Assembly (NCBI GenBank): GCA_026770705.1
Contig: JANJGN010001481.1
Location: 62,001 to 126,000 of the forward strand
Reading direction: 5' to 3'
Source of the DNA: Isurus oxyrinchus
Taxonomy: Eukaryota
DNA length: 64,000 bases
The notes under the pieces were generated by a model that made no database searches, had not been told where the DNA came from, and was given only the letters and a program-made list of their open reading frames with translations. A program made the position numbers and the translations under genes. This document shows, one piece after another, positions 14,587-64,000 of this stretch (position 1 is the first letter of the stretch; each line of letters starts with the position of its first letter).

Positions 14587-15516
14587 TTCACCAGCAGCGC
14601 AGTAATAAACCGCAGTGTCAGTCAGCTCCACGCTCAGTATTTTCAGGCTGCACCACTTGGTGTTGTGTCTTGTCACTTCAAACCTCTGCTTGAACCCCTC
14701 TTCAGGCCTGGGCTCTGAGGTACCCACCGAGGTGACCATGAGCTGCAGCCCTGCTCCGGGGTGCTGCCGATACCAGTACATGTAGGTCTCGCTGGTATCG
14801 TTCTGGTAACAGCCCATCTCCACCGTGTCCCCCTCTCTAACGGACAGACGGCTCGGCCACTGGGAAACCAGGGCGCTCCTGCAGGAGGCTGAGGAGGGAG
14901 GTGAGAGACAGAGCGGATCAGAAATGAACTGGCACCATCAGGAGGTGGAGAAAGCTATTGTCGAATCTCACAGCGCAGCTCTCGGTCGCTCAGCTCCCTT
15001 CACCCAGAAACAGAACCATAATGTCTGGGTGCCCAGTGTCGCCCCAGCTCAGTGGTAGCGGCGCTCTCTGGAGATACTTGTCCTGGGTGCAGATTTGTGT
15101 GCAATACTCCTGCCCAGCAGCTTCCCATACCCCACACCGCTAACTCTGCCGCGTTCGCCGCGCCCCACACACTTTAACTCTCCAGTGAGACGGACTCTTC
15201 CTGCTCAGTGAGGCTGCTCACCTCCCCAGCTCGGCTGCCAAGGGGCTTTGCATTTGTATGTAGTCCTATCCCCTTTCCCTCAACCCTTTGTCCAGCAGAT
15301 ATTCCCCGCCCGTCTATTGTTCCCAGTTACTTTGGCAGAATGCAACTTCCGCACTATGACTGGCAACACCGAGCTCAACAATATCCAATTCTACAAATGA
15401 TCCAACTGAATGAATTGTCGCTTCAGCAACAGGAAGCCCATTCCCCCTTACAAATATTCATTGTAACCTGGTAGCAGCAGCAGCAACAGTGCAGAGAGAT
15501 TCACTGTCCAGCCCAT
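14587..15516 (-). CDS. TCR V gene segment V2, type A (leader 15468-15516, V exon 14587-14888)
   Basis: Intact frame. CDR1 TSETY, CDR2 GTSEPRP, HV4 FEVTRHNTKW, 23-RSS. Confidence 0.92.
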
Positions 15517-21194: not shown

Positions 21195-22124
21195 TTCACC
21201 AGCAGCGCAGTAATAAACCGCAGGGTCAGTCAGCTCCATGCTCAGTACTTTCAGGCTGCACAACTTAATCTCGGGTCTGGTGACATTAAACCTCTTCTTG
21301 AAACCATCTTCATAGGTGGGATTCGAACCAGTAACCGAGGTGACCATGAGCTGCAGCCCTGCTCCGGGGTGCTGCCGATACCAGTACATGTTGATATGCT
21401 CAGTGTCGTTCTGGTAACAGCCCATCTCCACCGTGTCCCCCTCTCTAACGGACAGACGGCTCGGCCACTGGGAAACCAGGGCGCTCCTGCAGGAGGCTGA
21501 GGAGGGAGGTGAGAGACAGAGCGGATCAGAAATGAACTGGCACCATCAGGATGTGGAGAAAGCTATTGTCGAATCTCACAGCGCAGCTCTCGGTCGCTCA
21601 GCTCCCTTCACCCAGAAACAGAACCATAATGTCTGGGTGCCCAGTGTCGCCCCAGCTCAGTGGTAGCGGCGCTCTCTGGAGATACTTGTCCTGGGTGCAG
21701 ATTTGTGTGCAATACTCCTGCCCAGCAGCTTCCCATACCCCACACCGCTAACTCTGCCGCGTTCGCCGCGCCCCACACACTTTAACTCTCCAGTGAGACG
21801 GAATCTTCCTGCTCAGTGAGGCTGCTCACCTCCCCAGCTCGGCTGCCAAGGGGCTTTGCATTTGTATGTAGTCCTATCCCCTTTCCCTCAACCCTTTGTC
21901 CAGCAGATATTCCCCGCCCGTCTATTGTTCCCAGTTACTTTGGCAGAATGCAACTTCCGCACTATGACTGGCAACACCGAGCTCAACAATATCCAATTCT
22001 ACAAATGATCCAACTGAATGAATTGTCGCTTCAGCAACAGGGAGCCCATTCCCCCTTACAAATATTCATTGTAACCTGGTAGCAGCAGCAGCAACAGTGG
22101 AGAGAGATTCACTGTCCAGCCCAT
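21195..22124 (-). CDS. TCR V gene segment V3, type A (leader 22076-22124, V exon 21195-21496)
   Basis: Intact. CDR1 TEHIN, CDR2 TGSNPTY, HV4 FNVTRPEIKL, 23-RSS. Confidence 0.92.
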
Positions 22125-23365: not shown

Positions 23366-24123
23366 CACGCTCAGTATTTTCAGGCTGCACCACTTGGTGT
23401 TGTGTCTCGTCACTTCAAACCTCTCCTTGAACCCCTCTTCAGGCCTGGGCTCTGAGGTACCCACCGAGGTGACCATGAGCTGCAGCCCTGCCCCGGGGTG
23501 CTGACGGTACCAGGACATGGAGCTGTCACTGCTGTCGTTCTGGTAACAGCCCATCTCCACCATCTCCCCTTTTCCCACGGACAATCTCTTGGGCCACTGG
23601 GTAATGAGAGCGCTCCTGCAGACAGCTACAGAGAAACACTTTTATTACATTAAAAAACAAACCACAGACACATAGGGTCAAACATCAACTTTCTGGTGAT
23701 GGGGCCGGTTCTGTACATGTTAAACCACTAGAATCCGTAGAATTGGATTGGGGGACTGTGCCTGCCCATCTCTGGCGAGGCCATTTCCAATTAAACCCCC
23801 ACTCCCGTGCCCTTTACCGTCAGCCCGAGCAATATTACCCCATTTGGAAATTTACCCCGTCCCTTGTGTGGGGCACAAGTTGCAGCTGCTTCCCCAGCCT
23901 CTCATGCAATGTATTCTCCAGACCACAGCCACTCACTGCTTCAGTCAGTAAGGAACCTGCTCAATCTCTTCACTGACCGAAGCCTTTCTGCAGCTTCTAA
24001 TGCTCCAAGAATTGAAGTTTCCCCCCAAAAGCAGGTTTAGAGCGGCCAGGGTTGGCCTACAAAGGATGAAAAGTAACCTGGGAGCAGCAGAAACATGAGG
24101 TACAGGAAAGCACTGTGCAGCAT
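23366..24123 (-). pseudogene. 3'-truncated TCR V pseudogene V4, type B (leader 24078-24123, V remnant 23366-23625)
   Basis: MLHSAFLYLMFLLLPAVCRS-ALITQWPKRLSVGKGEMVEMGC...WCSLKILSV, then non-V sequence. The YYC motif and RSS are missing. Confidence 0.9.
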
Positions 24124-37130: not shown

Positions 37131-38109
37131 AAGGGGGGAGTGGAAGGAGGGGGGACGGAGAAGGGGAGGGGGAGGGGGGAGGGAGTGGGGGCAGGGTGCA
37201 GTGAGTGGGAGAATGGGGAGAGTGAGTGGGGGCAGTGGGAGGGAGGGTGAGTGGTTGGAGGGGGTAGCAGGGACTGGGGGGTGGGGGAGGGGTGTGGGGG
37301 TATTGGGGGCAGTGGGGGGGTGGGGTGAGTGGGGAGGGGGGAGTGGGGAGTGGGGGAGGGAGTGGGGGGTGTAGAGAGAGAGAGAGAGGTTGCTAGTTTC
37401 CCTCCAGCCTGTGTATGAAGATTTGCTTCACACAAACCTCCCCGAAAGGACTTGCGCTTCTTATTTGAAGTGTTAACGCGCCAGCTTATATCTCATTTGG
37501 AAGGTGATTATTATTCTGGTTTGATTTGTTAATATTATTTTTGATTGGCCAGCTGGATTTTACCATTTCACAATGAGGTAATTTGGTAAAGGAGAGAGAG
37601 CGGTTAATGATGGATTCTTCATGGAGATTTGGAGCTGACCAGCTCACAGCCCTATCAGGACTGGCTCCTGGTTTCATGTCCGAGTCCCTGTGAACACCAG
37701 CAGCGCAGGGACAAGCCGCAGTGTCTGTGGGAACATTGGAAAAGCACAGATTAGGCACTGCTGGAATGAGATGAACTCTCAGAACAGTTTCAAATAGGTG
37801 CGATAGGCCGGGGGGAGGGGGCTGCCCTGTATAATCCGCCGCTTATTCCAGCCTCTTTGTTTTTATTGGTCTTCATTATGGAAAGGATTTGCTGTGGGAG
37901 GTAGGTTTGGACTTGTCATTCAGGACAGACTGAGAGGCGTTGGGACATTTTATCCACTGGGAAGGTTGCAGTAAAAACCACATAGATCGTCACCAATATC
38001 CAGGTGGTTGCAGCACCACCACTTACTGGAGTTTACAGAGGTTTTAGCTCCCAGTAGAACAGAGTGGGGATGTTTTTGAACAAGATCTACACCTGTTTGA
38101 GTCTCTGTG

Positions 38110-39039: not shown

Positions 39040-40288
39040 GATGCGGGACTTTCACACGCTCTCTCAAACTCGCAGCTCCGCCCGCTTTCACAGACTGGAG
39101 TTATACTGCCGCTGCGCCTCGTGATATGGCTGCGTGCGGAAGTGATGTCATTGGAAGCTCACTCAACAGGACAGGTCCTTGCTGACCAAAGCACAGCAGG
39201 TGGCCCTTCCGTAGCCGGCCAGGTGAGAAGGATGAATATCCAGCTCTGACTGCCATGTGGAAATTGGATCCATGGCCGGAATTTACTCAGGGGCTTTTGT
39301 TTCCTTATTTGTTCCCGGGATGTGGCCTTCACTGGCCCAGCCCAGCAATTATAGCCCGTTCCTAACTGGGAAGGAATGTTCCAGTCAAAGCGCCCTAGGA
39401 AGGTCCTGCCTCGGTTGTTGAATGTCGCCCCGCCTTTCGCTTGGCTGTGGAAGTGGCTTCATATCATGGAGGTCCAGAGAAAACCCCCTCCCCCATTGTC
39501 CCTCCAAACAAGGCAGATGACTCTTTCCTGCCTGGTCACTGGGTGGGGTTAACAATACAGGTGGTCAGGCTGCCTGGCAATGTGCATTGTGTTACAGATG
39601 ATTGGTTGCAAAGATTGGAACCAGTTGGCCGCATGTGGCCTGTGGAGAGATAGTTCATGTGGAAACCCTGTCCAATCCTCTCGAGTTGGTCTAATGTCTC
39701 CACTCGGCAGCTCAGGCTCTCTGCACAGGGAACTGACTTTGACGTCCCATAACAAGCTATTGCTCTTACCCGACAGTATAAGTAGCAGCGAGGAAACACG
39801 GACAGCCATTATTCAGCCAGATCAAGCTGAGTGCCGATCTGATAGATATGTTCCACATTAGGGCCATGGTTAGATTTGGGACTGAAGCTTTTCCCCTTGA
39901 CATTAATCTAAGGGAACGGGGGTCGCCGATTAAAGTGGATTCATAAACGGCCGACAGGGGAGATTCAGGTGATTTTTAATTCTAACTGATTGTGTTATTA
40001 AGAGGTTACAGGAAGCAGATACAGCGGGAACTTTGAGAAGAGATTTGAATGGAACATTATTTCCCTGTCGCTTTGAGGGAATGGAATTACTGAGAAGGGA
40101 TATGAAGCAGTTTGAACTGAACACTGTCCCCGTGTTAACCTTCACCTTTCACTCGAGCTAATTCCCTCCACTTTGGGAGGTGCTGAGTTTGGGGTTCCGA
40201 ACTGTTGAGAAGCTGAGACATTGTTCTAGCCAGTCACAATCTTGTGGGAAATCGGACACCCTTCATCAATGATCTGGTGACTTTTACC

Positions 40289-43200
40289 AGATCCCCAGAG
40301 GAGATGAGGTCAGTAACAGTCCTGGAAACAATGGCTTGATGTTCAGTGGTGGGGTCATGGTCCAGGGAGAGGTAGGAGGAAGTGTCTGCGAGTTGACGCT
40401 CAGCCTCCGTGAGGTAGAGGTCAGTGCACCAGACAACAACAGCACCACCCTTGTCAGCGGGTTTGATGACAATGTCAGGGTTGGACCTGAGAGAATGGAG
40501 TGCAGTAAGTTCAGAGAGAGACAGGTTAGAATGGGTGAGAGGAGCAGAGACATTGAGACGACTAATGTCGCGCCGACTGTTCTCAATGAAAAGATCGAGA
40601 GAAGGTAAGAATCCAGAGGGAGGGGTCCAGGTGGAGGGAGAATATTGGAGATGGGTAAAAGGATCTGTTGAACTGGGAGAGGACTCCTGCCCAATGAAGT
40701 GAGCCCAGAGACGAAGACGGCGGAAGAAGAGTTCAGTATCATGCCGAGCCTGAAATTCATTGAGGCGAGGGCGTAAGGGTATGAAACTAAGTCCTTTGCT
40801 GAGCACTGAACGTTCAGCATCGGAGAGGGGAAGGTCAGGGGGTATAGTGAATACACGGCCGGGGCTGGGATTGGAAGATGGGGTGGGGACGGAGGGACAG
40901 GCAGGGGTGGAGGGTCCTAGATGGCTGTGGGTGTCGATGAGTTGTTGGAGCTTGCGTTCCTTAGCACTTGAGAGAAAGAGAAAAAGTTTCTTGTTGAGGC
41001 ATCGGATAGGACGAAGTATAAAATGAAACTGGGGGCACGCGCAGCTTTGAAAAAGGGTACGGCGGTGCTGCTGGAGGGAGAGGTCGAGTGTGTTCATATG
41101 GCGGCGCATGGCACTGAGTGTGGATTCCAGAATGTGATGGGAACACCAGTCCGAGAAACGTTTTATGTCCCAGAAATATCTCCAATCCTGGGTGGGTTCG
41201 AAACCATGAGAGGTGGAATTTCAATTGAAATCCACGTGGGGTAATTCGGAGACGGAGACAGTCACTGAGAAAGGAGATATGGCTGTGAAAGCGGGTTTTA
41301 GTAAACACCTTGTCAAACACCAGGTGAAAAATGGAAAGCAATGGAGGTGAACAAGGCAAAAGAGAGATATGGACATCGTGTCGCAGAGACGAACAGAACT
41401 TCTTCAAGGAGGTAGGCATTTCTGGAAGAGCAGGGGCAGTCAATTAATCACAGATAAAAACAAAAAACTGCGGATGCTGGAAATCCAAAACAAGAACAGA
41501 ATTACCTGGAAAAACTCAGCAGGTCTGGCAGGATCAGCAGAGAAGAAAAGAATTGATGTTTCGAGTCCTCATGACCCTTCGACAGAACTAGGTGAATCCA
41601 AGGAAGGGGTGAAATATCAGCTGGTTTAAGGTGGGGGTGGGGTGGGGGTGAGAAGTGGAGGGGGGTGGTGTGGTTGTAGGGACAAACAAGCAGTGATAGA
41701 AGCAGATCAACAAAAGATGTCACAGACAACAGAACAAAAGAACACATAGGTGTTAAAGTTGGTGATATTATCTAAACGAATGTGCTAATTAAGAATGGAT
41801 GGTAGGGCACTCAAGGTACAGCTCTAGTGGGGGTGGGGGAGCATAAAAGATTTAAAAATATTTAAAAATAATGGAAATAGCTGGTAAAAAGACAAATCTA
41901 TATAATTTATTGGGAAAAAAAATGAAGGGGGAAGAAACAGAAAGGGGGTGGGGATAGAGGAGGGAGTTCATGACCTAAAGTTGTTGAATTCAATATTCAG
42001 ACCGGAAGGCTGTAAAGTGCCTAGTCGGAAGATGAGGTGTTGTTCCTCCAGTTTGCGTTGGGCTTCACTGGAACAATGCAGCAAGCCAAGGACAGACATG
42101 TGGGCAAGAGAGCAGGGTGGAGTGTTAAAATGGCAAGCGGCAGGGAGGTTTGGGTCATTCTTGCAGACAGACCACAGGTGTTCTGCAAAGCGGTCGCCCA
42201 GTTTACGTTTGGTCTCTCCAATGTAGAGGAGACCACATTGGGAACAACGAATGCAGTAGACTAAGTTGGGGGAAATGCAAGTGAAATGCTGCTTCACTTG
42301 AAAGGAATGTTTGGGCCCTTGGACGGTGAGGAGAGAGGAAGTGAAGGGGCAGGTGTTACATCTTTTGTGTGGGCATGGGGTGGTGCCATAGGAGGGGGTT
42401 GAGGAGTAGGGGGTGATGGAGGAGTGGACCAGGGTGTCCCGGAGGGAACGATCCCTGCGGAATGCCACCGTGGGAGTGAAAGTGAAGATGTGTTTGGTGG
42501 TGGCATCATGCTGGAGTTGGCGGAAATGGCAGAAGATGATCCTTTGAATGTGGAGTCTGGTGGTGTGATAAGTGAGGACAAGGGGGACCCTATCATGTTT
42601 CTGGGAGGGAGGAGAAGGCGTGAGGGCGGATGCGCGGGAGATGGGCCGGACACGGTTGAGGGCCCTTTCAACGACCGTGGGTGGAAAACCTCGGTTAAGG
42701 AAGAAGGAGGACATGTCAGAGGAACCGTTTTGGAAGGTAGCATCATCGGAACAGATGCAACGGAGGCGAAGGAACTGGGAGAATGGGATGGAGTCCTTAC
42801 AGGAAGCAGGGTGTGAGGAGCTGTAGTCAAGGTAGCTGTGGGAGTCGGTAGGTTTCTAATGGATATTGGTGGACAGTCTATGACCAGAGATTGAGACAGA
42901 GAGGTCAAGGAAGGGAAAGGAAGTGTCAGAGATGGACCACGTGAAAATGATGGAGGGATGGAGACTGGAAGCAAAATTAATAAATCTTTCCAAGTCCCGA
43001 CGAGAGCATGAAGCGGCACCGAAGTAATCATCGATGTACCGGAGAAAGAGTTGTGGAAGGGGGCCGGAGTTGGACTGGAACAAGGAATGTTCCACATACC
43101 CCATAAAGAGACAGGCATAGCTGGGGCCCATGCGGGTACCCATAGCCACACCTTTTATTTGGAGGAAGTGAGAGGAGTTGAAGGAGAAATTGTTCAGCGT

Positions 43201-43767
43201 GAGAACAAGTTCAGCCAGACGGAGGAGAGTAGTGGTGGATGGGGATTGTTCGGGCCTCTGTTCGAGGAAGAAGCTAAGGGCCCTCAGACCATCCTGGTGG
43301 GGGATGGAGGTGTAGAGGGATTGGACGTCCATGGTGAAGAGGAAGCGGTTGGGGCCAGGGAACTGGAAATTGTTGATGTGACATAAGGTGTCAGAGGAAT
43401 CACGGATGTAGGTGGGAAGGGACTGGACAAGGGGAGAGAGAAGGGAGTCAAGATAACGAGAAATGAGTTCTCTGGGGCAGGAGCAAGCTGAGACGATCGG
43501 TCTACCGGGGCAGTTCTGTTTGTGGATTTTGGGTAGGAGATAGAAGCGGGCCGTCCGAGGTTGGGCGACTATCAGGTTGGAAGCTGTGGGAGGAAGATCC
43601 CCAGAGGAGATGAGGTCAGTGACGGTCCTGGAAACAATGGCTTGATGTTCAGTGGTGGGGTCATGGTCCAGGGAGAGGTAGGAGGAAGTGTCTGCGAGTT
43701 GACGCTCAGCCTCTGTGAGGTAGAGGTCAGTGCGCCAGACAACAACAGCACCACCCATGTCAGCGGG
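40289..43767 (-). mobile_element. Circularly permuted Penelope-like element P4 (sister copy of P1)
   Basis: ORFs at 42856-43758, 41968-42714 and 40234-41109. Shares the STNIH-stop with P1. Confidence 0.93.
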
Positions 43768-44694
43768 AAGGGGGGAGTGGAAGGAGGGGGGAAGGAGAAG
43801 GGGAGGGGGGAGGGAGTGGGGGAAGGGTGCAGTGAGTGGGGGAATGGGGGGAGTGAGTGGGGGCAGTGGGAGGGAGCGTGAGTGGTTGGAGGGGGTAGGG
43901 GGGACAGGGGGTGGGGGGGTGGTATTGGGGGCAGAGGGGGGTGAGGAAGTGGTGGGTGTAGAGAGAGAGAGTTTGCTAGTTTCCCTCCAGCCTGTGTATG
44001 AAGATTTGCTTCACACAAACCTCCCCGAAAGGACTTGCGCTTCTTATTTGAAGTGTTAACGCGCCAGCTTATATCTCATTTGGAAGGTGATTATTATTCA
44101 GGTTGGATTTGTTAATATTATTTTTGATTGGCCAGCTGGATTTTACCATTTCACAATGAGGTAACTTGGTAAAGGAGAGAGAGCGGTTAATGATGGATTC
44201 TTCATGGAGATTTGGAGCTGACCAGCTCACAGCCCTATCAGGACTGGCTCCTGGTTTCATGTCCGAGTCCCTGTGAACACCAGCAGCGCAGGGACAAGCC
44301 GCAGTGTCTGTGGGAACATTGGAAAAGCACAGATTAGGCACTGCTGGAATGAGATGAAGCCTCAGAACAGTTTCAAATAGGTGCGATAGGCCGGGGGGGG
44401 AGGGGGCTGCCCTGTATAATCCGCCGCTTATTCCAGCCTCTTTGTTTTTATTGGTCTTCATTATGGAAAGGATTTGCTGTGGGAGGTAGGTTTGGACTTG
44501 TCATTCAGGTCAGACTGAAAGGCGTTGGGACATTTTATCCACTGGGAAGGTTGCAGTAAAAACCACATAGATCTTCACCAATATCCAGGTGGTTGCAGCA
44601 CCACCACTTACTGGAGTTTACAGAGGTTTTAGCTCCCAGTAGAACAGAGTGGGGATGTTTTTGAACAAGATCTACACCTGTTTGAGTCTCTGTG

Positions 44695-45492
44695 TTCACC
44701 AGCAGCGCAGTAATAAACCGCAGGGTCAGTCAGCTCCACGCTCAGTATTTTCAGGCTGCACCACTTGGTGTTGTGTCTTGTCACTTCAAACCTCTCCTTG
44801 AACCCCTCTTCAGGCCTGGGCTCTGAGGTACCCACCGAGGTGACCATGAGCTGCAGGCCTGCCCCGGGGTGCTGCTGATACCAGGACATGGAGCTGTCAC
44901 TGCTGTCGTTCTGGTAACAGCCCATCTCCACCATCTCCCCTTTTCCCACGGACAATCTCTTGGGCCACTGGGTAATGAGAGCGCTCCTGCAGACAGCTAC
45001 AGAGAAACACTTTTATACATTAAAAAACAAACCACAGACACATAGGGTCAAACATCAACTTTCTGGTGATGGGGCCGGTTCTGTACATTTTAAACCACCA
45101 GAATCCGTAGAATTGGATTGGGGAACCGTGCCCACCCATCTCTGGCGAGGCCATTTCCAATTAAACCCCCACTCCCGTGCCTTTACCGTCAGCCCGAGCA
45201 ATATTACCCCATTTGGAAATTTACCCCGTCCCTTGTGTGGGGCACAAGTTGCAGCTGCTTCCCCAGCCTCTCATGCAATGTATTCTCCAGACCACAGCCA
45301 CTCACTGCTTCAGTCAGTAAGGAACCTGCTCAATCTCTTCACTGACCGAAGCCTTTCTGCAGCTTCTAATGCTCCAAGAATTGAAGTTTCCCCCCAAAAG
45401 CAGGTTTAGAGCGGCCAGGGTTGGCCTACAAAGGATGAAAAGTAACCTGGGAGCAGCAGAAACATGAGGTACAGGAAAGCACTGTGCAGCAT
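44695..45492 (-). CDS. TCR V gene segment V7, type B, intact (leader 45447-45492, V exon 44695-44996)
   Basis: MLHSAFLYLMFLLLPAVCRS-ALITQWP...NDSSDSSMSWYQQ...DPAVYYCAAGE, 23-RSS. Confidence 0.9.
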
Positions 45493-45746
45493 GGTGCTGG
45501 AATCATGAACCACCCTGGGTCAATCCTTCTGCTCCATCCCAGCTCTCAGACAGACACACTGCAGCTCCAAATCCGCTGTCACACCTCTCGGGTTTGGGGG
45601 TGTGGAGACGACAACATTTCAGCAACACCCACAAGGTGTTTACTGGCCCGTTTCTTACCCGAGACAAACAGCCAAACCTTTTCCTGTCTGTGGATAGCAG
45701 AATGATAAGTACATGGCGTTGTCTGGCACGGTGCAGGACATTGCAT

Positions 45747-47125: not shown

Positions 47126-50100
47126 GTGCTGTGTGATGAAATGGTCAGCATCGAAGGGGTTTTCCAATGTTGCAGAGTTCATACTGAGGTTCCGCTGTAT
47201 TCCGTGAATCTATAATGTGGAGATGCTGCACTCTCCAATGTACTGAGTGAACCCTACACTGTCTTCCGACTGCCACGTGAAGCAGATCTTCCAGAATCGA
47301 AGCAACGTAGAAATGATGTGGGGCATACGCTGTTGAAGAGGCAAAAGGAGAGTACAGACAAAAGATACAAGACAAGAGATCCCAAATAACTAAGGAGCAA
47401 TGCAAGAGGAGCCAAGGGCAGGGACAGTGGTTGCAGCCATGCTCCTGGCTGAGTTTTAATGACAAAATAATGAAAACCTCCAGCCAAAAAAGCAAACAAA
47501 TAACATGAAAACAAAGATCCGAGGCAACAGAAACAAGAGGACGAAATGGTGGGGGTGGGGCTTTCATAATCTGCAGCTGTTGAATTCAGAGCTGAGCCTG
47601 AGGTGCGGTGAAAGGCCTGGTGCTGAGGCTGGGCCAGTTGCCTTTGGAAGGGGACAGGGTGCCACAGGAGTTAGAGGAGTCGGCCAGGGTGCTGCAGAGT
47701 GAACGCTGATAGAGAAGCGGAGGTCAAGTTGTGTTTGGCTTAAGGGCTGTGCTGAGGCTGGTTGAAATGGGTCAAGGTGTTGACTTGAATGTGAATTCTA
47801 ATGGGTTGGGGAGTGAGGAGGACAGAAATCTGGCCACAGTTCTCGGGGAGAGAGGGAAAGGATTAAGAGTACATGTGTGTGAAATGGGTCAGGCATGAGT
47901 GAGAGCCTCCTCAAATGCAGTGAGTCAGGAGCGATCCTCGGTTGAGGAAAAGGAAGACATATGTGAAGCAATGTTGTGGAAGGTTGCAGAGTCGGAAATG
48001 ATGCAAGCGAGACAGGAAAGGGGAGAATCGATTGGAGCCCTTACAGTAGGATGTGTGTGAGGAAGTGCAGCCACAGTCAGTGAAGATGTGGAAGTGTGCG
48101 GGCCCTTGGTGATTATTAGTAGGTTGACTACCCCCCCGAAATGGAGGCATAGAAGGTGAGGAAGTGAAGTGAATTGTGGAAAGTGAAGTCGATGGAGGGC
48201 TGGAAACTGGAAGGAAAGCTGATGAAGGATTCTGGTTCTGCATGAGGGCAGGAAACACCATCGATGTGTACTTTGTGGGGGGGGTGGGGGGTAACAGCCT
48301 AGGTAGGAGGCAGAGTAGGGCTGGAAAAGGGAACGTCCCACATAACCCACAAAGAGACAGGTATAATTGGGATTTACCATAACAACACCTTTTATTTCGA
48401 GGAAGTGAGATGTACTAATGGAGGCAATGCTCAATTCCAGAACAAGTTCAGCCAAGGTTCTGATCTCAATCCTTTCCCTCTCTCCAAAAACCACGACCCC
48501 TGATTTCCATTCTCCCTGCTTCCCAACCCACTCGATTTCATATTCAAAGGAACGTCTTGGGCCAGCGCTGTTGAAAGCGGAGTGATTGAGTCGCTGTCCA
48601 AGGGAGAATCAGAGAGCACTCTGACCATTCTGGTAGGATATTGAGGTGTAGAGGTATTGGATGCCCACAGTGGACAGGTGGCCTCGAAGACCTTCGTATT
48701 GTTCAAGTCACATAGGGGCCATCACAAGAGGCACGGATGTGGGTGGGGAGAGGCTGGACAAGTGGAGAAAAGATTGAGTGAATATAGGAAGCAGTAAGTT
48801 CAGTTCTGCAGGAGCAGGCTGAAGATGGGGCTACCAGGGGAGTCCTGTTTGTGGATTATAGAAAGGAGATGGAAGTGAGCTGTTGGGCATTGGCCAACTA
48901 TGAGTTGCAAAGCTGTGGAGGAAAGGCCTCCAGTGGAACTAAAGTCAGCAGCAGTGCTGAAAGCAATGGCTTGATGCTCCGTGGTGGGGTCATGGTTCAG
49001 AGGAGCTAGGAAGGAGTGCCTGAGAGCTGACATTCATCCTCTGCATGTAGAGGTCTGTACAGCGTACACCGATAGCAGCAACTTCTCAGCAGTTCTGATA
49101 GAAAGATTATTGAACATTATTCTCACCAGACGTAGAAGCCACAGTGCAGAATGTGCTACACATCACTGCATGGTGTGTACTACATTGAGGATGTTACCCT
49201 GCTAGCTTTTTCATTCAAAGCAGAAACCCCCCTTCATATCACCGCCAACCATACCTGCCCACCCAGATTTCTTAAAACAAGAATCACGGTGTTGCAACTG
49301 GAGTGAGCTGGTTCTCTCCAGCGTTCCCACACAGAGCGCCCAAGTGAAATGGAATAGATCCCCAGTCACCATGCACACTCTCAACACATGGGGCGCTAGA
49401 GCAGGAAACGGCTGACTGGTGGAAACTGAAGACACTGCGGGGAAACCTGTCATTGAAGCCAAGTGACCCAGAGGGACCCGAGCAAGAAACCTCTGAATGC
49501 ACCGGGAGACGCCAGAAACAAGTTCCAAGAGGCTGTCAGGGCGGTGCAGCCTAGATCTGACCAGAATGACTGCTGGTTACAACTCAGCCAGAACACCCAG
49601 GTGTCCTAACACATGGGGAATGGCAAGGGGCATACATGTCGCTATCAGAAAGGGAACAGGTCACTCGGTGAAGAAAGCTGCTCAATTCAAAAGAGAGGCG
49701 GGGGAGGTCATCACCGACGGCAATAAGCTGCTGGTGAGATGGTGTCACATTGGGTGGTACTCTAGGGAGAAGACTGTTACCGAGGAAGCGCCAGGCATCC
49801 GGCAGAGGTAGTGCTGGCCTATGAAGTTGCCATGCCACCATTGATAGCTCCTCATACCTAGGCTCCACAATCACCAGCAATCTGTCACTTCATGTCCAAA
49901 CCAGCACACACACTGCACAAGCTCTGACTGTGATGAAACAGTGTAAGATATTGTGAGGTAACATCAACCTTACCAAGAACTTTGTCAAAGCCGCATTGGC
50001 AGGCGTGCTCCAATCTACACAGTGAGACCTGAGCACCATGGGCTAGGCAGGAGGACAGGCTCTCTCAGGCGTCTTCTCAGTATCTCTCACCAGGGGCAAG

Positions 50101-52325
50101 GTCACCATGTCAGCCACTTCCATCAGCGCACACTCATTACTAATCCATGGATACCCTGGGCAAGCCCCTCCACGGTCACCGGATGGGGAGGTGGTTGTAC
50201 ACTCAACGCCCCTCCTGCACAGTCAGTTGGCCACTGGGTCACCACATCTTGGCCATTCACACCTCTGTTACGAAGACACTTGCAAAGGCAGACCTGAAGC
50301 TGGAGGGAGTGGACGTTGCAAACAGGACGCTGGTCTCTGGCCTGTGGGGATGGGACTGTTTGGGTTCTCTTAGCTCAGGTTGTCTCTGGCCTGTGGAGGT
50401 GGGACTGTTTGGGTTCTCTTAGCTCAGGTTGTCTCTGGCCTGTGGAGGTGGGACTGTTTGGGTTCTCTTAGCTCAGGTTGTCTCTGGCCTGTGGAGGTGG
50501 GACTGTTTGGGTTCTCTTAGCTCAGGTTGTCTCTGGCCTGTGAAGGTGGGACTGTTTGGGTTCTCTTAGTCCATCTCTCCCCAGTGGATTTGTCCCTCGC
50601 CCATGGATCCCTCCTTTCTCTCTCTCTGCCCTCTCGGTTCCACATTGTGTGCAGAAACAGAAAGTTCCTCCATCTGTGGAGGGGACTGAGGAGAGACGGA
50701 GGCCACAGTGAATGGTTCACATTCCGCACCCACTGCCTTCATTGTCAGCAAACGGCAGCGGAGGTGGAGAAGCCGGGGTCTGGGCTCTTGAGCCACACCG
50801 GGTGATGCTGGACAGAGAGTTGACCCGACACGGCCACAAACCATTTCCCACACACCCATATCCTCACCTGAAACACTGAATCACTCACATCATTGATGTT
50901 TGAATGTTCCCCAAGGCTGAACGGGGTTTGTTTGGTGGGAGAGGGAGTGGTGGGGGAGGACGGGGGAGGGAGGAGTGTGGGGAGGGGGAGTGGAGGGAGG
51001 GGAGAGGGTGTGGGGGGAGTGGCCGGGGGTTAGTGAGGGGAGTGGGGGGAGTGTGGGAGGGAGTGGCCTGGGTGTGTGGGGGGAGTGGGTGGGGTGGGGG
51101 AGTGGCGGGGGAAGTGGGAAGGGGGGATGGGGGAGTGGGAGTGGCAGGGGTGTGGGGGGAGTGGGGTGAGTGGAGAGTGGGGAGTGGGTGTGGCAGGGAG
51201 TGTGAGTGGGGGGAGGGGCGAGGGAGGAGTGGGGGTAGGGGTGTGTGAGGGAGGGAGTGGGGGGAGTGACCGTGGGGCGGTTGGGGTGACTGGGGGGTAG
51301 GGGGTAGGGGGGAGTAGGAGTCAGCGTTTGGGAGGGAGTGGGGGGAGTTGGGGGAGGGGGGGAGCGGCGGAGAGGTGGGGGGTGTGCGGTGTGGGAGTGG
51401 CGGGGAGGGGCGAGTGGTGGGTTGGGGGGGCATTGGGGAGGAGTGGGCGGAGTGGTGGGTGTGGTGGGGGGAGTGAGGGTGGTGGGGAAGTGAGTGGGGG
51501 AATGGGGGGAGCGAGTGGGGGCAGTGGGAGGGAGGGTGAGTGGTTGGAGGGGGTAGGGGGGACTGGGGGGTGGGGGAATGGGGGGTGTAGAGAGAGAGAG
51601 AGAGTTTGCTAGTTTCCCTCCAGCCTGTGTATGAAGATTTGCTTCACACAAACCTCCCCGAAAGGACTTGCGCTTCTTATTTGAAGTGTTAACGCGCCAG
51701 CTTATATCTCATTTGGAAGGTGATTATTATTCTGGTTTGATTTGTTAATATTATTTTTGATTGGCCAGCTGGATTTTACCATTTCACAATGAGGTAATTG
51801 GGTAAAGGAGAGAGAGCGGTTAATGATGGATTCTTCATGGAGATTTGGAGCTGACCAGCTCACAGCCCTATCAGGACTGGCTCCTGGTTTCATGTCCGAG
51901 TCCCTGTGAACACCAGCAGCGCAGGGACAAGCCGCAGTGTCTGTGGGAACATTGGAAAAGCACAGATTAGGCACTGCTGGAATGAGATGAAGCCTCAGAA
52001 CAGTTTCAAATAGGTGCGATAGGCCGGGGGGAGGGGGCTGCCCTGTATAATCCGCCGCTTATTCCAGCCTCTTTGTTTTTATTGGTCTTCATTATGGAAA
52101 GGATTTGCTGTGGGAGGTAGGTTTGGACTTGTCATTCAGGTCAGACTGAGAGGATTTGGGACATTTTATCCACTGGGAAGGTTGCAGTAAAAACCACATA
52201 GATCGTCACCAATATCCAGGTGGTTGCAGCACCACCACTTACTGGAGTTTACAGAGGTTTTAGCTCCCAGTAGAACAGAGTGGGGATGTTTTTGAACAAG
52301 ATCTACACCTGTTTGAGTCTCTGTG

Positions 52326-53124
52326 TTCACCAGCAGCGCAGTAATAAACCGCAGGGTCAGTCAGCTCCACGCTCAGTATTTTCAGGCTGCACCACTTGGT
52401 GTTGTGTCTTGTCACTTCAAACCTCTCCTTGAACCCCTCTTCAGGCCTGGGCTCTGAGGTACCCACCGAGGTGACCATGAGCTGCAGCCCTGCCCCGGGG
52501 TGCTGACGATACCAGGACATGGAGCTGTCACTGCTGTCGTTCTGGTAACAGCCCATCTCCACCATCTCCCCTTTTCCCACGGACAATCTCTTGGGCCACT
52601 GGGTAATGAGAGCGCTCCTGCAGACAGCTACAGAGAAACACTTTTATTACATTAAAAAACAAACCACAGGCACATAGGGTCAAACATCAACTTTCTGGTG
52701 ATGGGGCCGGTTCTGTACATTTTAAAACACCAGAATCCGTAGAATTGGATTGGGGAACCGTGCCTGCCCATCTCTGGCGAGGCCATTTCCAATTAAACCC
52801 CCACTCCCGTGCCCTTTACCGTCAGCCCGAGCAATATTACCCCATTTGGAAATTTACCCCGTTCCTTGTGTGGGGCACAAGTTGCAGCTGCTTCCCCAGC
52901 CTCTCATGCAATGTATTCTCCAGACCACAGCCACTCACTGCTTCAGTCAGTAAGGAACCTGCTCAATCCCTTCACTGACCGAAGCCTTTCTGCAGCTTCT
53001 AATGCTCCAAGAATTGAAGTTTCCCCCAAAAGCAGGTTTAGAGCGGTCAGGGTTGGCCTACAAAGGATGAAAAGTAACCTGGGAGCAGCAGAAACATGAG
53101 GTACAGGAAAGCACTGTGCAGCAT
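52326..53124 (-). CDS. TCR V gene segment V8, type B, intact (leader 53079-53124, V exon 52326-52627)
   Basis: As V7 except WYRQ. 23-RSS present. Confidence 0.9.
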
Positions 53125-53378
53125 GATGCTGGAATCATGAACCACCCTGGGTCAATCCTTCTGCTCCATCCCAGCTCTCAGACAGACACACTGCAGCTCC
53201 AAATCCGCTGTCACACCTCTCGGGTTTGGGGGTGTGGAGACGACAACATTTCAGCAACACCCACAAGGTGTTTACTGGCCCGTTTCTTACCCGAGACAAA
53301 CAGCCAACCCTTTTCCTGTCTGTGGATAGCAGAATGATAAGTACACGGCGTTGTCTGGCAAGGTGCAGAACATTGCAT

Positions 53379-54557
53379 GCACTGTCAGAGGGTCAGTACT
53401 GAGGGAGTGCTGCACAGTCGGAGGGTCAGTACTGAGGGAGTGCTGCACAGTCGGAGGGTCAGTACTGAGGGAGTGCTGCACAGTCGGATGGTCAGTACTG
53501 AGGGAGTGCTGCACTGTCAGAGGGTCAGTACTGAGGGAGCGCTGCACTGTCAGAGGGACAGTACTGAGAGAGTGCTGCACTGTTTGAGTGTCAGTACTGA
53601 GCGAGTGCTGCACTGTCAGAGGGTCAGTACTGAGGGAGTGCTGCACTGTCAGAGGGTAAGTACTGAGTGAGTGCTGCACTGTTTGAGGGTCAGTACTGAG
53701 CGAGTGCTGCACTGTCAGAGGGTCAGTACTGAGGGAGTGCAGCACTGTCGGAGGGTCAGTACTGAGGGAGTGCAGCACTGTCAGAGGGTCAGTACTGAGG
53801 GTGTGCAGCACTGTCGGAGGGTCAGTACTGAGGGAGTGCTGCACTGTTGGAAGCTCAGTTCTGAGGGAGTGCTGCACTGTCAGAGGGTCACCACTGAGGG
53901 CGTACTGCACTGTCAGAGGGTCAGCACTGAGGGAGTGCTGCACTGTCAGAGGGTCAGTACTGGGGGAGTGCTGCACTGTCGGAGGGTCAGTACTGAGGGA
54001 GTGCTGCACTGTCAGCGGTTTAGCACTGAGGGAGTGCTGCACTCTCGGAGGGTCAGTACTGAGGGAGCCCTGCACTGTCAGAGGGTCTGCACTGAGGGAG
54101 TGCTGCACTGTCAGAGGGTCTGCACTGAGGGAGTGCTGCGCTGTCGGAGGGTCAGCACTGAGGGAGTGCTGCACTGTCAGAGGGTCAGTACTGAGGGAGT
54201 GCTGCACTGTCGGAGGGTCAGCACTGAGGGAGTGCTGCACTGTCGAAGGGTCAGCACTGAGGGAGTGCTGCACTGTCAGAGGGTCAGTACTGAGGGAGTA
54301 CTGCACTGTCGGAGGGTCAGTACTGAGGGAGTGCTGCACTGTCGGAGGGTCAGCACTGAGGGAGTGCTGCACTGTCAGAGGGTCAGTACTGAGGGAGTAC
54401 TGCACTGTCGGAGGGTCAGTACTGAGGGAGTGCTGCACTTTCGAGGGTCAGTAATGAGGGAGTGCTGCACTGTCGGAGGGTCAGTAATGAGGGTGTACCG
54501 CACTGTCAGAGGGTCAGCACTGAGGGAGTGCTGCACTGTCAGAGGCTCAGCACTGAG
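53379..54557. repeat. 33-bp minisatellite (~36 units)
   Basis: Same unit. Confidence 0.95.
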
Positions 54558-57500
54558 ACAGTGCTGTGTGATGAAATGGTCAGCATCGAAGGGTTTTCCA
54601 ATGTTGCAGAGTTCATACTGAGGTTCCGCTGTATTCCGTGAATCTATAATGTGGAGATGCTGCACTCTCCAATGTACTGAGTGAACCCTACACTTCCTTC
54701 CGACTGCCACGTGAAGCAGATCTTCCAGAATCGAAGCAACGTAGAAATGGTGTGGGGCATACGCTGTTGAAGAGGCAAAAGGAGAGTACAGACAAAAGAT
54801 ACAAGACAAGAGATCCCAAATAACTAAGGAGCAATGCAAGAGGAGCCAAGGGCAGGGACAGTGGTTGCAGCCATGCTCCTGGCTGAGTTTTAATGACAAA
54901 ATAATGAAAACCTCCAGCCAAAAAAGCAAACAAATAACATGAAAACAAAGATCCGAGGCAACAGAAACAAGAGGGTGAAATGGTGGGGGTGGGGCTTTCA
55001 TAATCTGCAGCTGTTGAATTCAGAGCTGAGCCTGAGGTGCGGTGAAAGGCCTGGTGCTGAGGCTGGGCCAGTTGCCTTTGGAAGGGGACAGGGTGCCACA
55101 GGAGTTAGAGGAGTCGGCCAGGGTGCTGCAGGGTGAACGCTGATAGAGAAGCAGAGGTCAAGTTGTGTTCGGCTTAAGGGCTGTGCTGAGGCTGGTTGAA
55201 ATGGGTCAAGGTGTTGACTTGAATGTGAATTCTAATGGGTTGGGGAGTGAGGAGGACAGAAATCTGGCCACAGTTCTCGGGGAGAGAGGGAAAGGATTAA
55301 GAGTACATGAGTGTGAAATGGGTCAGGCATGAGTGAGAGCCTCCTCAAATGCAGTGAGTCAGGAGCGATCCTCGGTTGAGGAAAAGGAAGACATATGTGA
55401 AGCAATGTTGTGGAAGGTTGCAGAGTCGGAAATGATGCAAGCGAGACAGGAAAGGGGAGAATCGATTGGAGCCCTTACAGTAGGATGTGTGTGAGGAAGT
55501 GCAGCCACAGTCAGTGAAGATGTGGAAGTGTGCGGGCCCTTGGTGATTATTAGTAGGTTGACTACCCCCCCGAAATGGAGGCATAGAAGGTGAGGAAGTG
55601 AAGTGAATTGTGGAAAGTGAAGTCGATGGAGGGCTGGAAACTGGAAGGAAAGCTGATGAAGGATTCTGGTTCTGCATGAGGACAGGAAACACCATCGATG
55701 TGTACTTCGTGGGGGGGGGGTGGGGGTTAAAAGCCTAGGTAGGAGGCAGAGTAGGGCTGGAAAAGGGAACGTCCCACATAACCCACAAAGAGACAGGTAT
55801 AATTGGGATTTACCATAACAACACCTTTTATTTCGAGGAAGTGAGATGTACTAATGGAGGCAATGCTCAATTCCAGAACAAGTTCAGCCAAGGTTCTGAT
55901 CTCAATCCTTTCCCTCTCTCCAAAAACCACAACCCCTGATTTCCATTCTCCCTGCTTCCCAACCCACTCGATTTCATATTCAAAGGAACGTCTTGGGCCA
56001 GCGCTGTGGAAAGCGGAGTGATTGAGTCGCTGTCCAAGGGAGAATCAGAGAGCACTCTGACCATTCTGGTAGGATATTGAGGTGTAGAGGTATTGGATGC
56101 CCACAGTGGACAGGTGGCCTCGAAGACCTTCGTATTGTTCAAGTCACATAGAGGCCATCACAAGAGGCACGGATGTGGGTGGGGAGAGGCTGGACAAGTG
56201 GAGAAAAGATTGAGTGAATATAGGAAGCAGTAAGTTCAGTTCTGCAGGAGCAGGCTGAAGATGGGGCTACCAGGGGAGTCCTGTTTGTGGATTATAGAAA
56301 GGAGATGGAAGTGAGCTGTTGGGCATTGGCCAACTATGAGTTGCAAAGCTGTGGAGGAAAGGTCTCCAGTGGAACTAAAGTCAGCAGCAGTGCTGAAAGC
56401 AATGGCTTGATGCTCCGTGGTGGGGTCATGGTTCAGAGGAGCTAGGAAGGAGTGCCTGGGAGCTGACATTCATCCTCTGCATGTAGAGGTCTGTACAGCG
56501 TACACCGATAGCAGCAACTTCTCAGCAGTTCTGATAGAAAGATTATTGAACATTATTCTCACCAGACGTAGAAGCCACAGTGCAGAATGTGCTACACATC
56601 ACTGCATGGTGTGTACTACATTGAGGATGTAACCCTGCTAGCTTTTTCATTCGAAGCAGAAACACCCCTTCATATCACCGCCAACCATACCTGCCCACCC
56701 AGATTTCTTAAAACAAGAATCACGGTGTTGCAACTGGAGTGAGCTGGTTCTCTCCAGCGTTCCCACACAGAGCGCCCAAGTGAAATGGAATAGATCCCCA
56801 GTCACCATGCACACTCTCAACACATGGGGCGCTAGAGCAGGAAACGGCTGACTGGTGAAAACTGAGGACACTGCGGGGAAACCTGTCATTGAAGCCAAGT
56901 GACCCAGAGGGACCCGAGCAAGAAACCTCTGAATGCACTGGGAGACGCCAGAAACAAGTTCCAAGAGGCTGTCAGGGCGGTGCAGCCTTGATCTGACCAG
57001 AATGACTGCTGGTTACAACTCAGCCAGAACACCCAGGTGTCCTACCACATGGGGAATGGCAAGGGGCATACATGTCGCTATCAGAAAGGGAACAGGTCAC
57101 TCGGTGAAGAAAGCTGCTCAATTCAAAAGAGAGGCGGGGGAGGTCATCACTGACTGCAATAAGCTGCTGGTGTGATGGTGTCACATTGGGTGGTACTCTA
57201 GGGAGAAGACAGTTACCGAGGAAGCGCCAGGCATCCGGCAGAGGTGCAGCCTGTCATGGGCAGAGTGAAATTCGAATGAGCATTGGAGGGGTTTCTGAAA
57301 GCTGTAGAATCACCAGCAATTATGGGCAGAGCTCCAGGGGCTGATGATATACCACCTTGAAATCATCAAGCACAGGACATTAGCTCTCCTGCAGCATCTG
57401 CATGAAGTGGACTGGAGCGAGCGGGCAGCTGCCCAGGTATCTGTGTGTTGCAAAGATGCACAGGAACCAGGCAGCAATTCTAACAATGATAGAGGAGTCA

Positions 57501-60574: not shown

Positions 60575-61504
60575 TTCACTCGCAGCGCAGTAATAAACCG
60601 CAGTGTCAGTCAGCTCCACGCTCAGTATTTTCAGGCTGCACAACTTACGGTCGGGTCTGGTCACATTAAACCTCTTCTTGAAACCATCTTCAGGCCTGGG
60701 CTCTGAGGTACCCACCGAGGTGACCATGAGCTGCAGCCCTGCTCCGGGGTGCTGACGGTACCAGTATATGTTGATATGCTCAGTGTCGTTCTGGTAACAG
60801 CCCATCTCCACCGTGTCCCCCTCTCTAACGGACAGACGGCTCGGCCACTGGGAAACCAGGGCGCTCCTGCAGGAGGCTGAGGAGGGAGGTGAGAGACAGA
60901 GCGGATCAGAAATGAACTGGCACCATCAGGATGTGGAGAAAGCTATTGTCGAATCTCACAGCGCAGCTCTCGGTCGCTCAGCTCCCTTCACCCAGAAACA
61001 GAACCATAATGTCTGGGTGCCCAGTGTCGCCCCAGCTCAGTGGTAGCGGCGCTCTCTGGAGATACTTGTCCTGGGTGCAGATTTGTGTGCAATACTCCTG
61101 CCCAGCAGCTTCCCATACCCCACACCGCTAACTCTGCCGCGTTCGCCGCGCCCCACACACTTTAACTCTCCAGTGAGACGGACTCTTCCTGCTCAGTGAG
61201 GCTGCTCACCTCCCCAGCTCGGCTGCCAAGGGGCTTTGCATTTGTATGTAGTCCTATCCCCTTTCCCTCAACCCTTTGTCCAGCAGATATTCCCCGCCCG
61301 TCTATTGTTCCCAGTTACTTTGGCAGAATGCAACTTCCGCACTATGACTGGCAACACCGAGCTCAACAATATCCAATTCTACAAATGATCCAACTGAATG
61401 AATTGTCGCTTCAGCAACAGGGAGCCCATTCCCCCTTACAAATATTCATTGTAACCTGGTAGCAGCAGCAGCAACAGTGGAGAGAGATTCACTGTCCAGC
61501 CCAT
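60575..61504 (-). CDS. TCR V gene segment V9, type A (leader 61456-61504, V exon 60575-60876)
   Basis: Intact. CDR1 TEHIN(I), CDR2 GTSEPRP, HV4 FNVTRPDRKL, 23-RSS. Confidence 0.92.
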
Positions 61505-62745
61505 GATGCGGGACTTTCACACGCTCTCTCAAACTCGCAGCTTCGCCCGCTTTCACAGACTGGAGTTATACTGCCGCTGCGCCTCGTGATATGGCTGCGT
61601 GCGGAAGTGATGTCATTGGAAGCTCACTCAACAGGACAGGTCCTTGCTGACCAAAGCACAGCAGGTGGCCCTTCCGTAGCCGGCCAGGTGAGAAGGATGA
61701 ATATCCAGCTCTGACTGCCATGTGGAAATTGGATCCATGGCCGGAATTTACTCAGGGGCTTTTGTTTCCTTATTTGTTCCCGGGATGTGGCCTTCACTGG
61801 CCCAGCCCAGCAATTATAGCCCGTTCCTAACTGGGAAGGAATGTTCCAGTCAAAGCGCCCTAGGAAGGTCCTGCCTCGGTTGTTGAATGTCGCCCCGCCT
61901 TTCGCTTGGCTGTGGAAGTGGCTGCATATCATGGAGGTCCAGAGAAAACCCCCTCCCCCATTGTCCCTCCAAACAAGGCAGATGACTCTTTCCTGCCTGG
62001 TCACTGGGTGGGGTTAACAATACAGGTGGTCAGGCTGCCTGGCAATGTGCATTGTGTTACAGATGATTGGTTGCAAAGATTGGAACCAGTTGGCCGCATG
62101 TGGCCTGTGGAGAGATAGTTCATGTGGAAACCCTGTCCAATCCTCTCGAGTTGGTCTAATGTGTCCACTCGGCAGCTCAGGCTCTCTGCACAGGGAACTG
62201 ACTTTGACGTCCCATAACAAGCTATTGCTCTTACCCGACAGTATAAGTAGCAGCGAGGAAACACGGACAGCCATTATTCAGCCAGATCAAGCTGAGAGCC
62301 GATCTGATAGATATGTTCCACATTAGGGCCATGGTTAGATTTGGGACTGAAGCTTTTCCCCTTGACAATAATCTAAGGGAACGGGGGTCGCCGATTAAAG
62401 TGGATTCATAAACGGCCGACAGGGGAGATTCAGGTGATTTTTAATTCTAACTGATTGTGTTATTAAGAGGTTACAGGAAGCAGATACAGCGGGAACTTTG
62501 AGAAGAGATTTGAATGGAACATTATTTCCCTGTCGCTTTGAGGGAATGGAATTACTGAGAAGGGATATGAAGCAGTTTGAACTGAACACTGTCCCCGTGT
62601 TAACCTTCACCTTTCACTCGAGCTAATTCCCTCCGCTTTGGGAGGTGCTGAGTTTGGGGTTCCGAACTGTTGAGAAGCTGAGACATTGTTCTAGCCAGTC
62701 ACAATCTTGTGGGAAATCGGACACCCTTCATCAATGATCTGGTGA

Positions 62746-63502
62746 CACGTTCAGTATTTTCAGGCTGCACGACTTAATTTCGGGTCTGGTGACATCAAAC
62801 CTCTCCTTGAACCCCTCTTCAGGCCTGGGCTCTGAGGTACCCACCGAGGTGACCATGAGCTGCAGCCCTGCCCCGGGGTGCTGTTGATACCAGTACATGG
62901 AGCTGTCACTGCTGTCGTTCTGGTAACAGCCCATCTCCACCATCTCCCCTTTTCCCACGGACAATCTCTTGGGCCACTGGGTAATGAGAGCGCTCCTGCA
63001 GACAGCTACAGAGAAACACTTTTATTACATTAAAAAACAAACCACAGGCACATAGGTTCAAACATCAACTTTCTGGTGATGGGGCCGGTTCTGTACATTT
63101 TAAACCACTAGAATCCGTAGAATTGGATTGGGGAACCGTGCCTGCCCATCTCTGGCGAGGCCATTTCCAATTAAACCCCCACTCCCGTGCCCTTTACCGT
63201 CAGCCCGAGCAATAATACCCCATTTGGAAATTTACCCCGTCCCTTGTCTGGACACAAGTTGCAGCTGCTTCCCCAGCCTCTCATGCAATGTATTCTCCAG
63301 ACCACAGCCACTCACTGCTTCAATCAGTAAGGAACCTGCTCAATCTCTTCACTGACCGAAGCCTTTCTGCAGCTTCTAATGCTCCAAGAATTGAAGTTTC
63401 CCCCCAAAAGCAGGTTTAGAGCGGCCAGGGTTGGCCTACAAAGGATGAAAAGTAACCTGGGAGCAGCAGAAACATGAGGTACAGGAAAGCACTGTGCAGC
63501 AT
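62746..63502 (-). pseudogene. 3'-truncated TCR V pseudogene V10, type B (leader 63457-63502, V remnant 62746-63005)
   Basis: Same truncation point as V4 (GATCTGGTGAC|ACG). No YYC motif or RSS. Confidence 0.9.
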
Positions 63503-63757
63503 GGTGCTGGAATCATGAACCACCCTGGGTCAATCCTTCTGCTCCATCCCAGCTCTCAGACAGACACACTGCAGCTCCAAATCCACTGTCACTCCTCTCG
63601 GGTTTGGGGGTGTGGAGACGACAACATTTCAGCAACACCCACAAGGTGTTTACTGGCCCGTTTCTTACCCGAGACAAACAGCCAACCCTTTTCCTGTCTG
63701 TGGATAGCAGAATGATAAGTACACGGCGTTGTCTGGCACGGTGCAGGACATTGCATG

Positions 63758-64000
63758 CACTGTCAGAGGGGCAGTACTGAGGGAGTACTGCACTGTCAGA
63801 GGGTCAGTACTGAGGGAGTGCTGCACTGTCGGATGGTCAGTACAGAGGGAGTGCCGCACTGTCAGAGGTTCAGTACTGAGGGAGTACTGCACTGTCAGGT
63901 GGTCAGTACTGAGGGAGTGCTGCACTGTCAGAGGGTCAGTTCTGAGGGAGTGCTGCACTGTCAGAGGGTCAGTACTGAGGGAGTGCTGCACTGTCAGAGG
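63758..64000. repeat. 33-bp minisatellite, runs off the window end
   Basis: Same unit. Confidence 0.93.

Follow-up and report, generated by a model that had tools for sequence, protein, structure and literature searches.

How can two V pseudogenes that end at the same base carry different sequence within a few dozen nucleotides of that end? The question arises in the window, by which we mean the whole 64,000-nt stretch of Isurus oxyrinchus DNA analysed here (contig C1481). Six-frame translation revealed ten V-domain exons in it, all on the minus strand. Two of them, V10 and V4, are truncated at a common junction, and the region that we take to be HV4 by V-domain numbering encodes FDVTRPEIKSC in V10 and FEVTRHNTKWC in V4. 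Our answer, to which we assign a probability of about 0.8, is that V10 and V4 belong to a set of eight copies of a single truncated V, and that their HV4 differences come from ordinary germline conversion and unequal crossing-over acting across the whole array. The features on which the argument draws are given here in window coordinates, with the C-type genes of the other contigs at the end.

63457..63502, minus strand: V10 leader exon, B type, intact, phase 1, with an in-frame splice to the V exon
62746..63005, minus strand: V10 truncated TRBV exon, B-type from FR1 to CDR2, without the second Cys and the RSS
62751..62804 (maximal) and 62776-62794 (minimal), minus strand: A-type HV4 patch of V10
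62805 and 62750, minus strand: borders of the V10 patch, a B-type base and a truncated-class base, respectively
62745..62746, minus strand: truncation junction, common to eight assembly copies, with 1-nt microhomology
60877..62745, minus strand: V10 post-junction DNA, consisting of ordinary upstream sequence, leader and intron of V9, the A-type V that comes next
60575..60876, minus strand: V9, intact A-type TRBV exon, with a 23-RSS from 60574
60770..60787, minus strand: C-type CDR1 cassette (DTEHIN) of V9; maximal tract 60744-60800
24078..24123, minus strand: V4 leader exon, B type, intact
23366..23625, minus strand: V4 truncated TRBV exon, with B-type HV4 and intact-type ILS
21195..21496, minus strand: V3, intact A-type exon, with a C-type CDR1 cassette at 21390-21407
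44695..44996, minus strand: V7, intact B-type exon, the untruncated counterpart of V4 and V10
52326..52627, minus strand: V8, intact B-type exon
40281..44736, minus strand: 4456 nt of the V7-V6 unit (V 3' end, RSS and spacer) absent from the V4-V3 and V10-V9 units
14587..14888, minus strand: V2, intact A-type exon with B-type HV4, a reverse exchange seen in 1 of 27 A genes
24377-25764, 45750-47189, 53374-54566 and 63756-64000: 33-nt tandem repeat
Contig C163 at 291.6, 482.8, 559.5, 802.6 and 968.9 kb, and contig C1134 at 13.5 and 55.9 kb: C-type V genes

The census was seeded with a framework-2 pattern, which had 55 matches on three contigs of the 4.98-Gb assembly, and the surrounding stretches were then retrieved. 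It comprises 56 V exons of this TRBV family (38 on C163, 8 on C1134 and 10 in the window), a number that leaves aside two 5'-truncated fragments found later and could miss more diverged copies. Classified by their 5' ends, the exons are 27 A, 14 B, 7 C and 8 truncated ones (P), the last with a B-type 5' end. A leader, a V exon with both Cys and Trp, and an RSS with a 23-nt spacer were found in 27/27 A and 11/14 B genes; with an open frame, YYC and RSS, these make 38 apparently functional V genes. The best matches of the intact V proteins were TCR-beta V regions, which places the family in TRBV. V7, aligned over 98% of the query, has 65% identity with a nurse-shark TCR-beta chain; its identity with horn-shark proteins is 62-67%, and the leader-V boundary is the same as in nurse-shark and horn-shark TCR-beta. 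A PDB search returned generic V-domain matches and nothing more specific. The 48 untruncated copies encode 43 distinct V proteins. None of the window V exons is identical to one on the other contigs, the nearest differing at 4-15 positions.

A D segment (12/23 RSS), six J-like segments and a C-beta exon sit on contig C2826, where a 36-nt satellite precedes the D segment; the same satellite fills the end of C163. It is plausible that the V array is joined to this D-J-C cluster, the contigs having no physical join in the assembly. On C163 the satellite (1003128-1117549, sampled stretches) starts about 11 kb past the last V and was present in every sample to the contig end, and on C2826 it occupies 35512-51000, where it borders the D segment on the upstream side. 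The satellite between V and D-J-C may exceed 100 kb. At least three C-beta exons are present in the assembly (C2826:21900, C31:1200298 and C31:1329803). The two on C31 have opposite orientations and lie among other TRBV-like exons, and the assembly may hold more than one TRB locus. The window also contains a decayed V from a separate family (~1500-1800, minus strand); it has a YYCAL-type end with a heptamer, together with stops and frameshifts, and recurs after several V blocks (C163:526.7 kb, C163:578.3 kb and C1134:40.5 kb). An open TRBV exon of a different family, with a YVEQ start and a canonical RSS, lies upstream of a C-type gene at C163 ~799.1-799.4 kb. The 33-nt tandem repeat, variable in copy number, lies upstream of the promoters of B-type and truncated V genes.

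V10 (63005-62746) and V4 (23625-23366) have the same last base on the minus strand and the same sequence beyond it, with 7 differing sites in 1846 nt. Neither qualifies as a functional TRBV gene: both are cut in FR3, lack the second Cys and the RSS, and meet two stops after the junction. An exact 24-nt junction pattern had 8 matches in the 4.98-Gb assembly and its reversed control had 0, so that the two pseudogenes counted in the first-pass annotation become eight. These RSS-less remnants are interspersed with working V genes in the same orientation. The DNA beyond the junction is an ordinary A-gene upstream region, about 99% identical to that of other A units; it starts 2003 nt before the A-gene anchor and occurs 26 times in the retrieved DNA. 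Compared with the V7-V6 unit, 4456 nt are missing from the truncated units; compared with a short C-A arrangement, 145 nt are missing. The break ends share 1 nt of microhomology, and the 300-nt windows around them have no local similarity longer than 8 nt. Given an identical junction in eight copies and so little homology at the ends, a single origin is much the likeliest history, and the annotation's proposal of one origin for V4 and V10 holds for all 8/8 copies. The truncation thus likely arose once, as judged from the sequence. Since B and P exons both often come about 1900 nt after an A gene, the junction could equally be the place where a 4-kb tandem duplication was joined. Three samples from three studies, one of which may be the assembly's own source, have public contigs that also cross the junction; no RNA run was listed among the public runs containing the sequence. 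One of these contigs, 2004 nt long, reaches the next A exon, and two have allele combinations missing from the assembly, as read from variant tables.

Recurrent deletion mediated by repeats or by RSSs was rejected, there being no homology longer than 8 nt at the ends; a heptamer-like motif was seen only in the RSS that belongs to this V, about 42 nt into the deletion. The spacer exists in a long form (6.6 kb) and a short one (2274 nt), and only 10 nt separate the boundary between the two from the distal breakpoint (window 40281-40290 and the equivalent site in short C-A units). This proximity to another rearrangement boundary indicates that the spot was rearranged at least twice.

The exons of V4 and V10 differ at 14 sites. 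Nine of these are in HV4, 26-49 nt from the junction, which confirms the contrast that had drawn attention to the pair; one is 5 nt from the junction (ILS in V4, ILN in V10) and four are 139-149 nt away. A-type HV4 was found in 3/8 P copies, namely V10, C163:322.7 kb and C163:513.2 kb. All three retain a B-type base 9 nt to the left of HV4 and, 5 nt from the junction, the base of ILN, so that the patch is bounded at 19-54 nt. Three changes separate V10 from two intact A genes within the 54-nt HV4 interval, and three separate it from the B genes V7 and V8 elsewhere in the exon. Runs of A-diagnostic sites were non-random by permutation in V10 (p = 0.015) and in the other two patched copies (p = 0.002 and 4e-5). 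This is the signature of germline conversion: a few dozen nucleotides that agree with a paralogue, flanked on each side by bases typical of the recipient. The downstream A neighbour has a PDRK HV4 in 3/3 patched P copies and in 1/5 other P copies, as against 8/27 A genes overall. The common left boundary, the common core and the PDRK neighbour suggest one conversion followed by duplication and edits, and the three A-type patches may be a single event.

The annotation had regarded V10 as the converted copy. V4, too, may have been back-converted, being the sole P copy with ILS, the intact-type base 5 nt from the junction, and identical to intact B genes over the interval. Neither MYW, which had been read as an A-type mark, nor ILN, which had been thought private to V10, is diagnostic, since both are present across intact and truncated classes: MYW also in 4/14 B, 2/7 C and 4/8 truncated copies, and ILN in 7/8 truncated, 3/14 B and 1/27 A copies. 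Both remnants do have an open frame up to the junction, as had been stated, and meet their two stops beyond it. With 0 private substitutions in V4 and 2 in V10, each about 4-5% likely to create a stop, open frames are expected by chance and are uninformative on function. We therefore rejected them as a functional signal, the more so as 2/8 P copies are broken further, by a stop or a 13-nt deletion.

A B framework with A-type HV4 occurs in 3/8 truncated copies vs 0/14 B genes (Fisher p 0.036, or 0.015 with C genes included). We make no claim of selection against this combination in working genes, as the patches are possibly one event. Two 5'-truncated V fragments retain an intact 3' end and RSS (C163:811024-811200 and C1481:131428-131556), and the HV4 haplotype of the first is identical to that found in one truncated copy, the one at C163:322.7 kb.

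Exchange extends beyond these patches. Of 26 minor alleles in the P exons, 19 also occur in the 48 untruncated V genes (p0=0.163, p=2e-10), and when the HV4 tract is collapsed to one event, 11/18 are still common with untruncated genes (p=2e-5, or 0.012 at doubled p0). Alleles are thus shared across lineages beyond recurrent mutation, as germline conversion predicts. Among the eight 2.8-kb units, 356/595 informative site pairs fail the four-gamete test, and Rm is 15 (14 without CpG sites). A permutation test does not separate the 8 flanks beside P copies from the 17 flanks of other A genes (p 0.23), and in the same comparison no allele was both private to the P-adjacent flanks and common to them. 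No exchange in FR1 was found in 22 B or truncated copies despite 16 A/B diagnostic sites, as homology-dependent exchange predicts for the region in which A and B have diverged most. In the truncated units, the fraction of incompatible site pairs rises from 0.23 under 30 nt to 0.76 over 1 kb. This distance effect comes mostly from HV4 sites, and the non-coding flank alone has no decay. In simulations without recombination (gamma shape 0.03, two states, long tips), the incompatible fraction had a mean of 0.51 and a maximum of 0.63 vs 0.60 observed; with shapes from 0.1 upwards it never exceeded 0.58 (60 runs per setting). Under extreme mutation-rate variation the flank signal alone is not watertight, and the firm evidence for exchange is the clustered HV4 tract. 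The patches and the alleles common with untruncated genes point to sequence exchange after truncation, as conversion or as two successive crossovers. This reading, well supported, is what the annotation had argued from V4 and V10, and it now extends to patches in 3/8 copies and to 19/26 alleles.

A tree of the P copies built from the flanks was rejected, the flanks being too scrambled to order events. Nor does a comparison of Rm in the exon (9 in 324 nt) vs the flank (12 in 1888 nt) decide for exon-targeted exchange, as it depends on marker density. Among A genes FR1 has a diversity of 0.000 and the flank one of 0.006, vs 0.16 in CDR1, 0.24 in CDR2 and 0.12 in HV4, and the loop diversity is mostly in codons that alter amino acids. 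This pattern suggests homogenisation opposed by selection at the loops of working copies.

The C-type genes bear on whether broken copies also give sequence away. Compared with A, B and the horn-shark protein, all seven lack a base close to the start of the exon (a 1-nt frameshift), and no leader-like exon was found within 6 kb upstream of any of them. Their 18-nt CDR1 cassette is identical in 6/7 and has two changes in the seventh. The same cassette occurs in 3/27 intact A genes (V3, V9 and the one at C163:324.9 kb), and the last matches two C copies over 57 nt. Since 24/27 A genes and both outgroups have a TS-type CDR1, C to A is the simpler direction. The C-type genes are the best candidate donor of the CDR1 cassette, with direction and timing inferred from sequence comparison; the source could be a working C donor now lost, or the cassette could derive from A. 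For donation by the P copies, the candidates are ILN in four untruncated genes and an HV4 Ser codon in one. That codon is present in two P copies and one intact A gene. One public contig seemingly joins it to B-type HV4 and the junction, as inferred from tables, and it would be P-enriched if that single contig is read correctly. Of the donor or recipient role that had been proposed for the pseudogenes, the recipient side is shown, with patches in 3/8 P copies; donation by P amounts to unpolarised candidate alleles. A highly diverged CDR2 cassette (TGSNPTY or TGSKPTY) is restricted to A genes, in 8/27 including V3 and V5 of the window, and no source framework for it was found among the recovered V exons.

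Could the mosaic be produced in some other way? The reading that the truncation arose repeatedly in V genes that already differed, or that the HV4 match is recurrent point mutation, can draw on the distal spot, which broke at least twice with its second boundary 10 nt away. We give it practically no weight, because the proximal breakpoint is base-identical in eight copies with only 1 nt of microhomology; independent truncations, which the annotation had named as the finding that would overturn it, are disfavoured on the same ground. A pre-existing difference is opposed by the presence of A-type HV4 in 0/21 untruncated V genes with a B or C framework, and point mutation is implausible for seven clustered changes in V10 that are every one the A allele. 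An assembly or polishing artefact of near-identical repeats is also very improbable, if somewhat less so. The units are 94-99% identical, the flank polymorphisms are near linkage equilibrium even at short range, and the private HV4 haplotype of V10 is known from the assembly alone. However, two more P copies, both on a different contig and each distinguished by private bases, have the same patch; 27/27 A exons are without a frameshift, which argues for base accuracy; and public contigs from other samples repeat the junction, ILN and the distance to the following A gene.

Two further readings grant the exchange and give the pseudogenes a role. In one, they template somatic, AID-driven conversion of rearranged TCR-beta V in thymocytes, as in birds. 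RSS-less V remnants interspersed with working genes fit this, and PMC5931798 describes AID expression in nurse-shark thymus and mutation of the alpha, gamma and delta chains. However, the observed patches sit in genomic copies, 38 V genes with an open frame and RSS in this family alone render a donor pool unnecessary where the avian system has one or few rearranging V, and the same paper reports no evidence of mutation in 56 nurse-shark TCR-beta sequences from six families, a small sample from another species. We regard this reading as highly unlikely, and somatic conversion in Isurus oxyrinchus TRBV is not indicated. The loose likeness to avian pseudo-V reservoirs that had been suggested is not supported, given the same 38 genes, the unmutated nurse-shark clones (PMC5931798) and the scrambling of the non-coding flanks. 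In the other, the pseudogenes are a selected germline library of cassettes that stores CDR1 and HV4 variants and widens the inherited repertoire. We consider this unlikely. In its favour are the CDR1 of frameshifted, apparently leaderless C genes in 3/27 intact A genes; ILN, 5 nt from the junction, in 7/8 P and four untruncated genes; the HV4 Ser codon in two P copies, one intact A gene and the truncated public contig with B-type HV4; and 43 distinct V proteins among 48 untruncated copies. Against it, there is no signal of selection (a truncated copy carries 0.88 private substitutions on average, against 0.71 for B and C genes and 0.33 for A genes), 2/8 truncated copies are further broken, the donor could be a working C ancestor, and no pseudogene source was found for the CDR2 cassette of 8/27 A genes. 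In addition, the three TEHIN A genes each lie right behind a truncated copy, so that one event may explain them all.

The reading that we prefer remains germline conversion and unequal crossing-over across the array, which act regardless of coding state; the non-coding flanks are scrambled as well. The founding break would have happened once in a B-type V, as a 4.46-kb or 145-nt deletion or as the junction of a 4-kb tandem duplication, and the unit of truncated V plus A-type V would then have been amplified. One or a few short tracts probably entered P copies from an A-type V with a GTC-ACC-AGA-CCC-GAG-ATT HV4 core. Later tracts may have come from B or C genes, probably including the ILS of V4. 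The truncated copies would be passive recipients, and pseudogene-to-working donation is probably a by-product, best seen as the C-type CDR1 in V3, V9 and one more A gene. In the A genes, FR1 and flanks would be homogenised while diversity persists in CDR1, CDR2 and HV4, which suggests selection on working copies. A bolder version, which we hold only tentatively, is that broken V genes form an active germline library in which C genes gave CDR1 to A genes and P copies return HV4 and FR3 alleles, the repertoire being built from modules shuffled on fixed frameworks. If this is true, the shuffling of CDR1, CDR2 and HV4 would be the germline equivalent of what conversion does in birds, found in the most ancient lineage that has TCRs.

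The common junction is a natural lineage tag that reveals exchange into V genes beyond the reach of protein selection, and it makes the truncated class a neutral control for conversion in an antigen-receptor array. If donation from pseudogene to gene is true, dead V genes feed the inherited repertoire. Because a small set of shuffled cassettes yields 43 V proteins, studies of shark TCR cDNA that lack the complete germline array could take such variants for products of somatic hypermutation or somatic conversion. The finding is germline gene conversion of an already-known kind in a new and unusually clear setting. Our literature search, whose coverage mostly excluded subscription journals, returned nothing on germline conversion in cartilaginous-fish TRBV.

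In chicken, each locus has one working V, which is converted somatically, and germline upkeep of the pseudo-V donors was reportedly described by McCormack in 1993. Like the chicken pseudo-V genes, the shark P copies are RSS-less remnants near working V genes and exchange cassettes in the germline; unlike the chicken loci, the shark array has about 38 rearrangeable V genes, and it is known from genomic copies. The role of chicken pseudo-V genes as somatic donors is stated in PMC5224512. Within sharks, the array resembles the nurse-shark TCR-beta V5 family and horn-shark TCR-beta in the V7 identities given above and in the leader-V boundary, and differs in having at least 56 copies in repeated blocks and two pseudogene classes. 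Human IGHV has 12 VH3 and 13 VH4 pseudogenes with a common truncation point (PMC2212390). As in the shark, one ancestral truncation spread through duplication there; the human truncated copies form their own clade, whereas the shark P copies are mosaics with flanks inseparable from those of working units. In the MHC, short conversion tracts pass among paralogues and the tree position of a pseudogene shifts by exon, as reported in PMC12674619. Conversion in immune multigene families (MHC, TRBV and TRBC) resembles that in the shark array, with short non-allelic tracts between neighbours, pseudogenes included. TRBV conversion is called documented, yet secondary to birth-and-death evolution, in PMC2685407. 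In contrast to that account, the shark array looks strongly concerted, with FR1 invariant across 27 A genes and flanks 99.4% alike, while old CDR1, CDR2 and HV4 cassettes are reshuffled.
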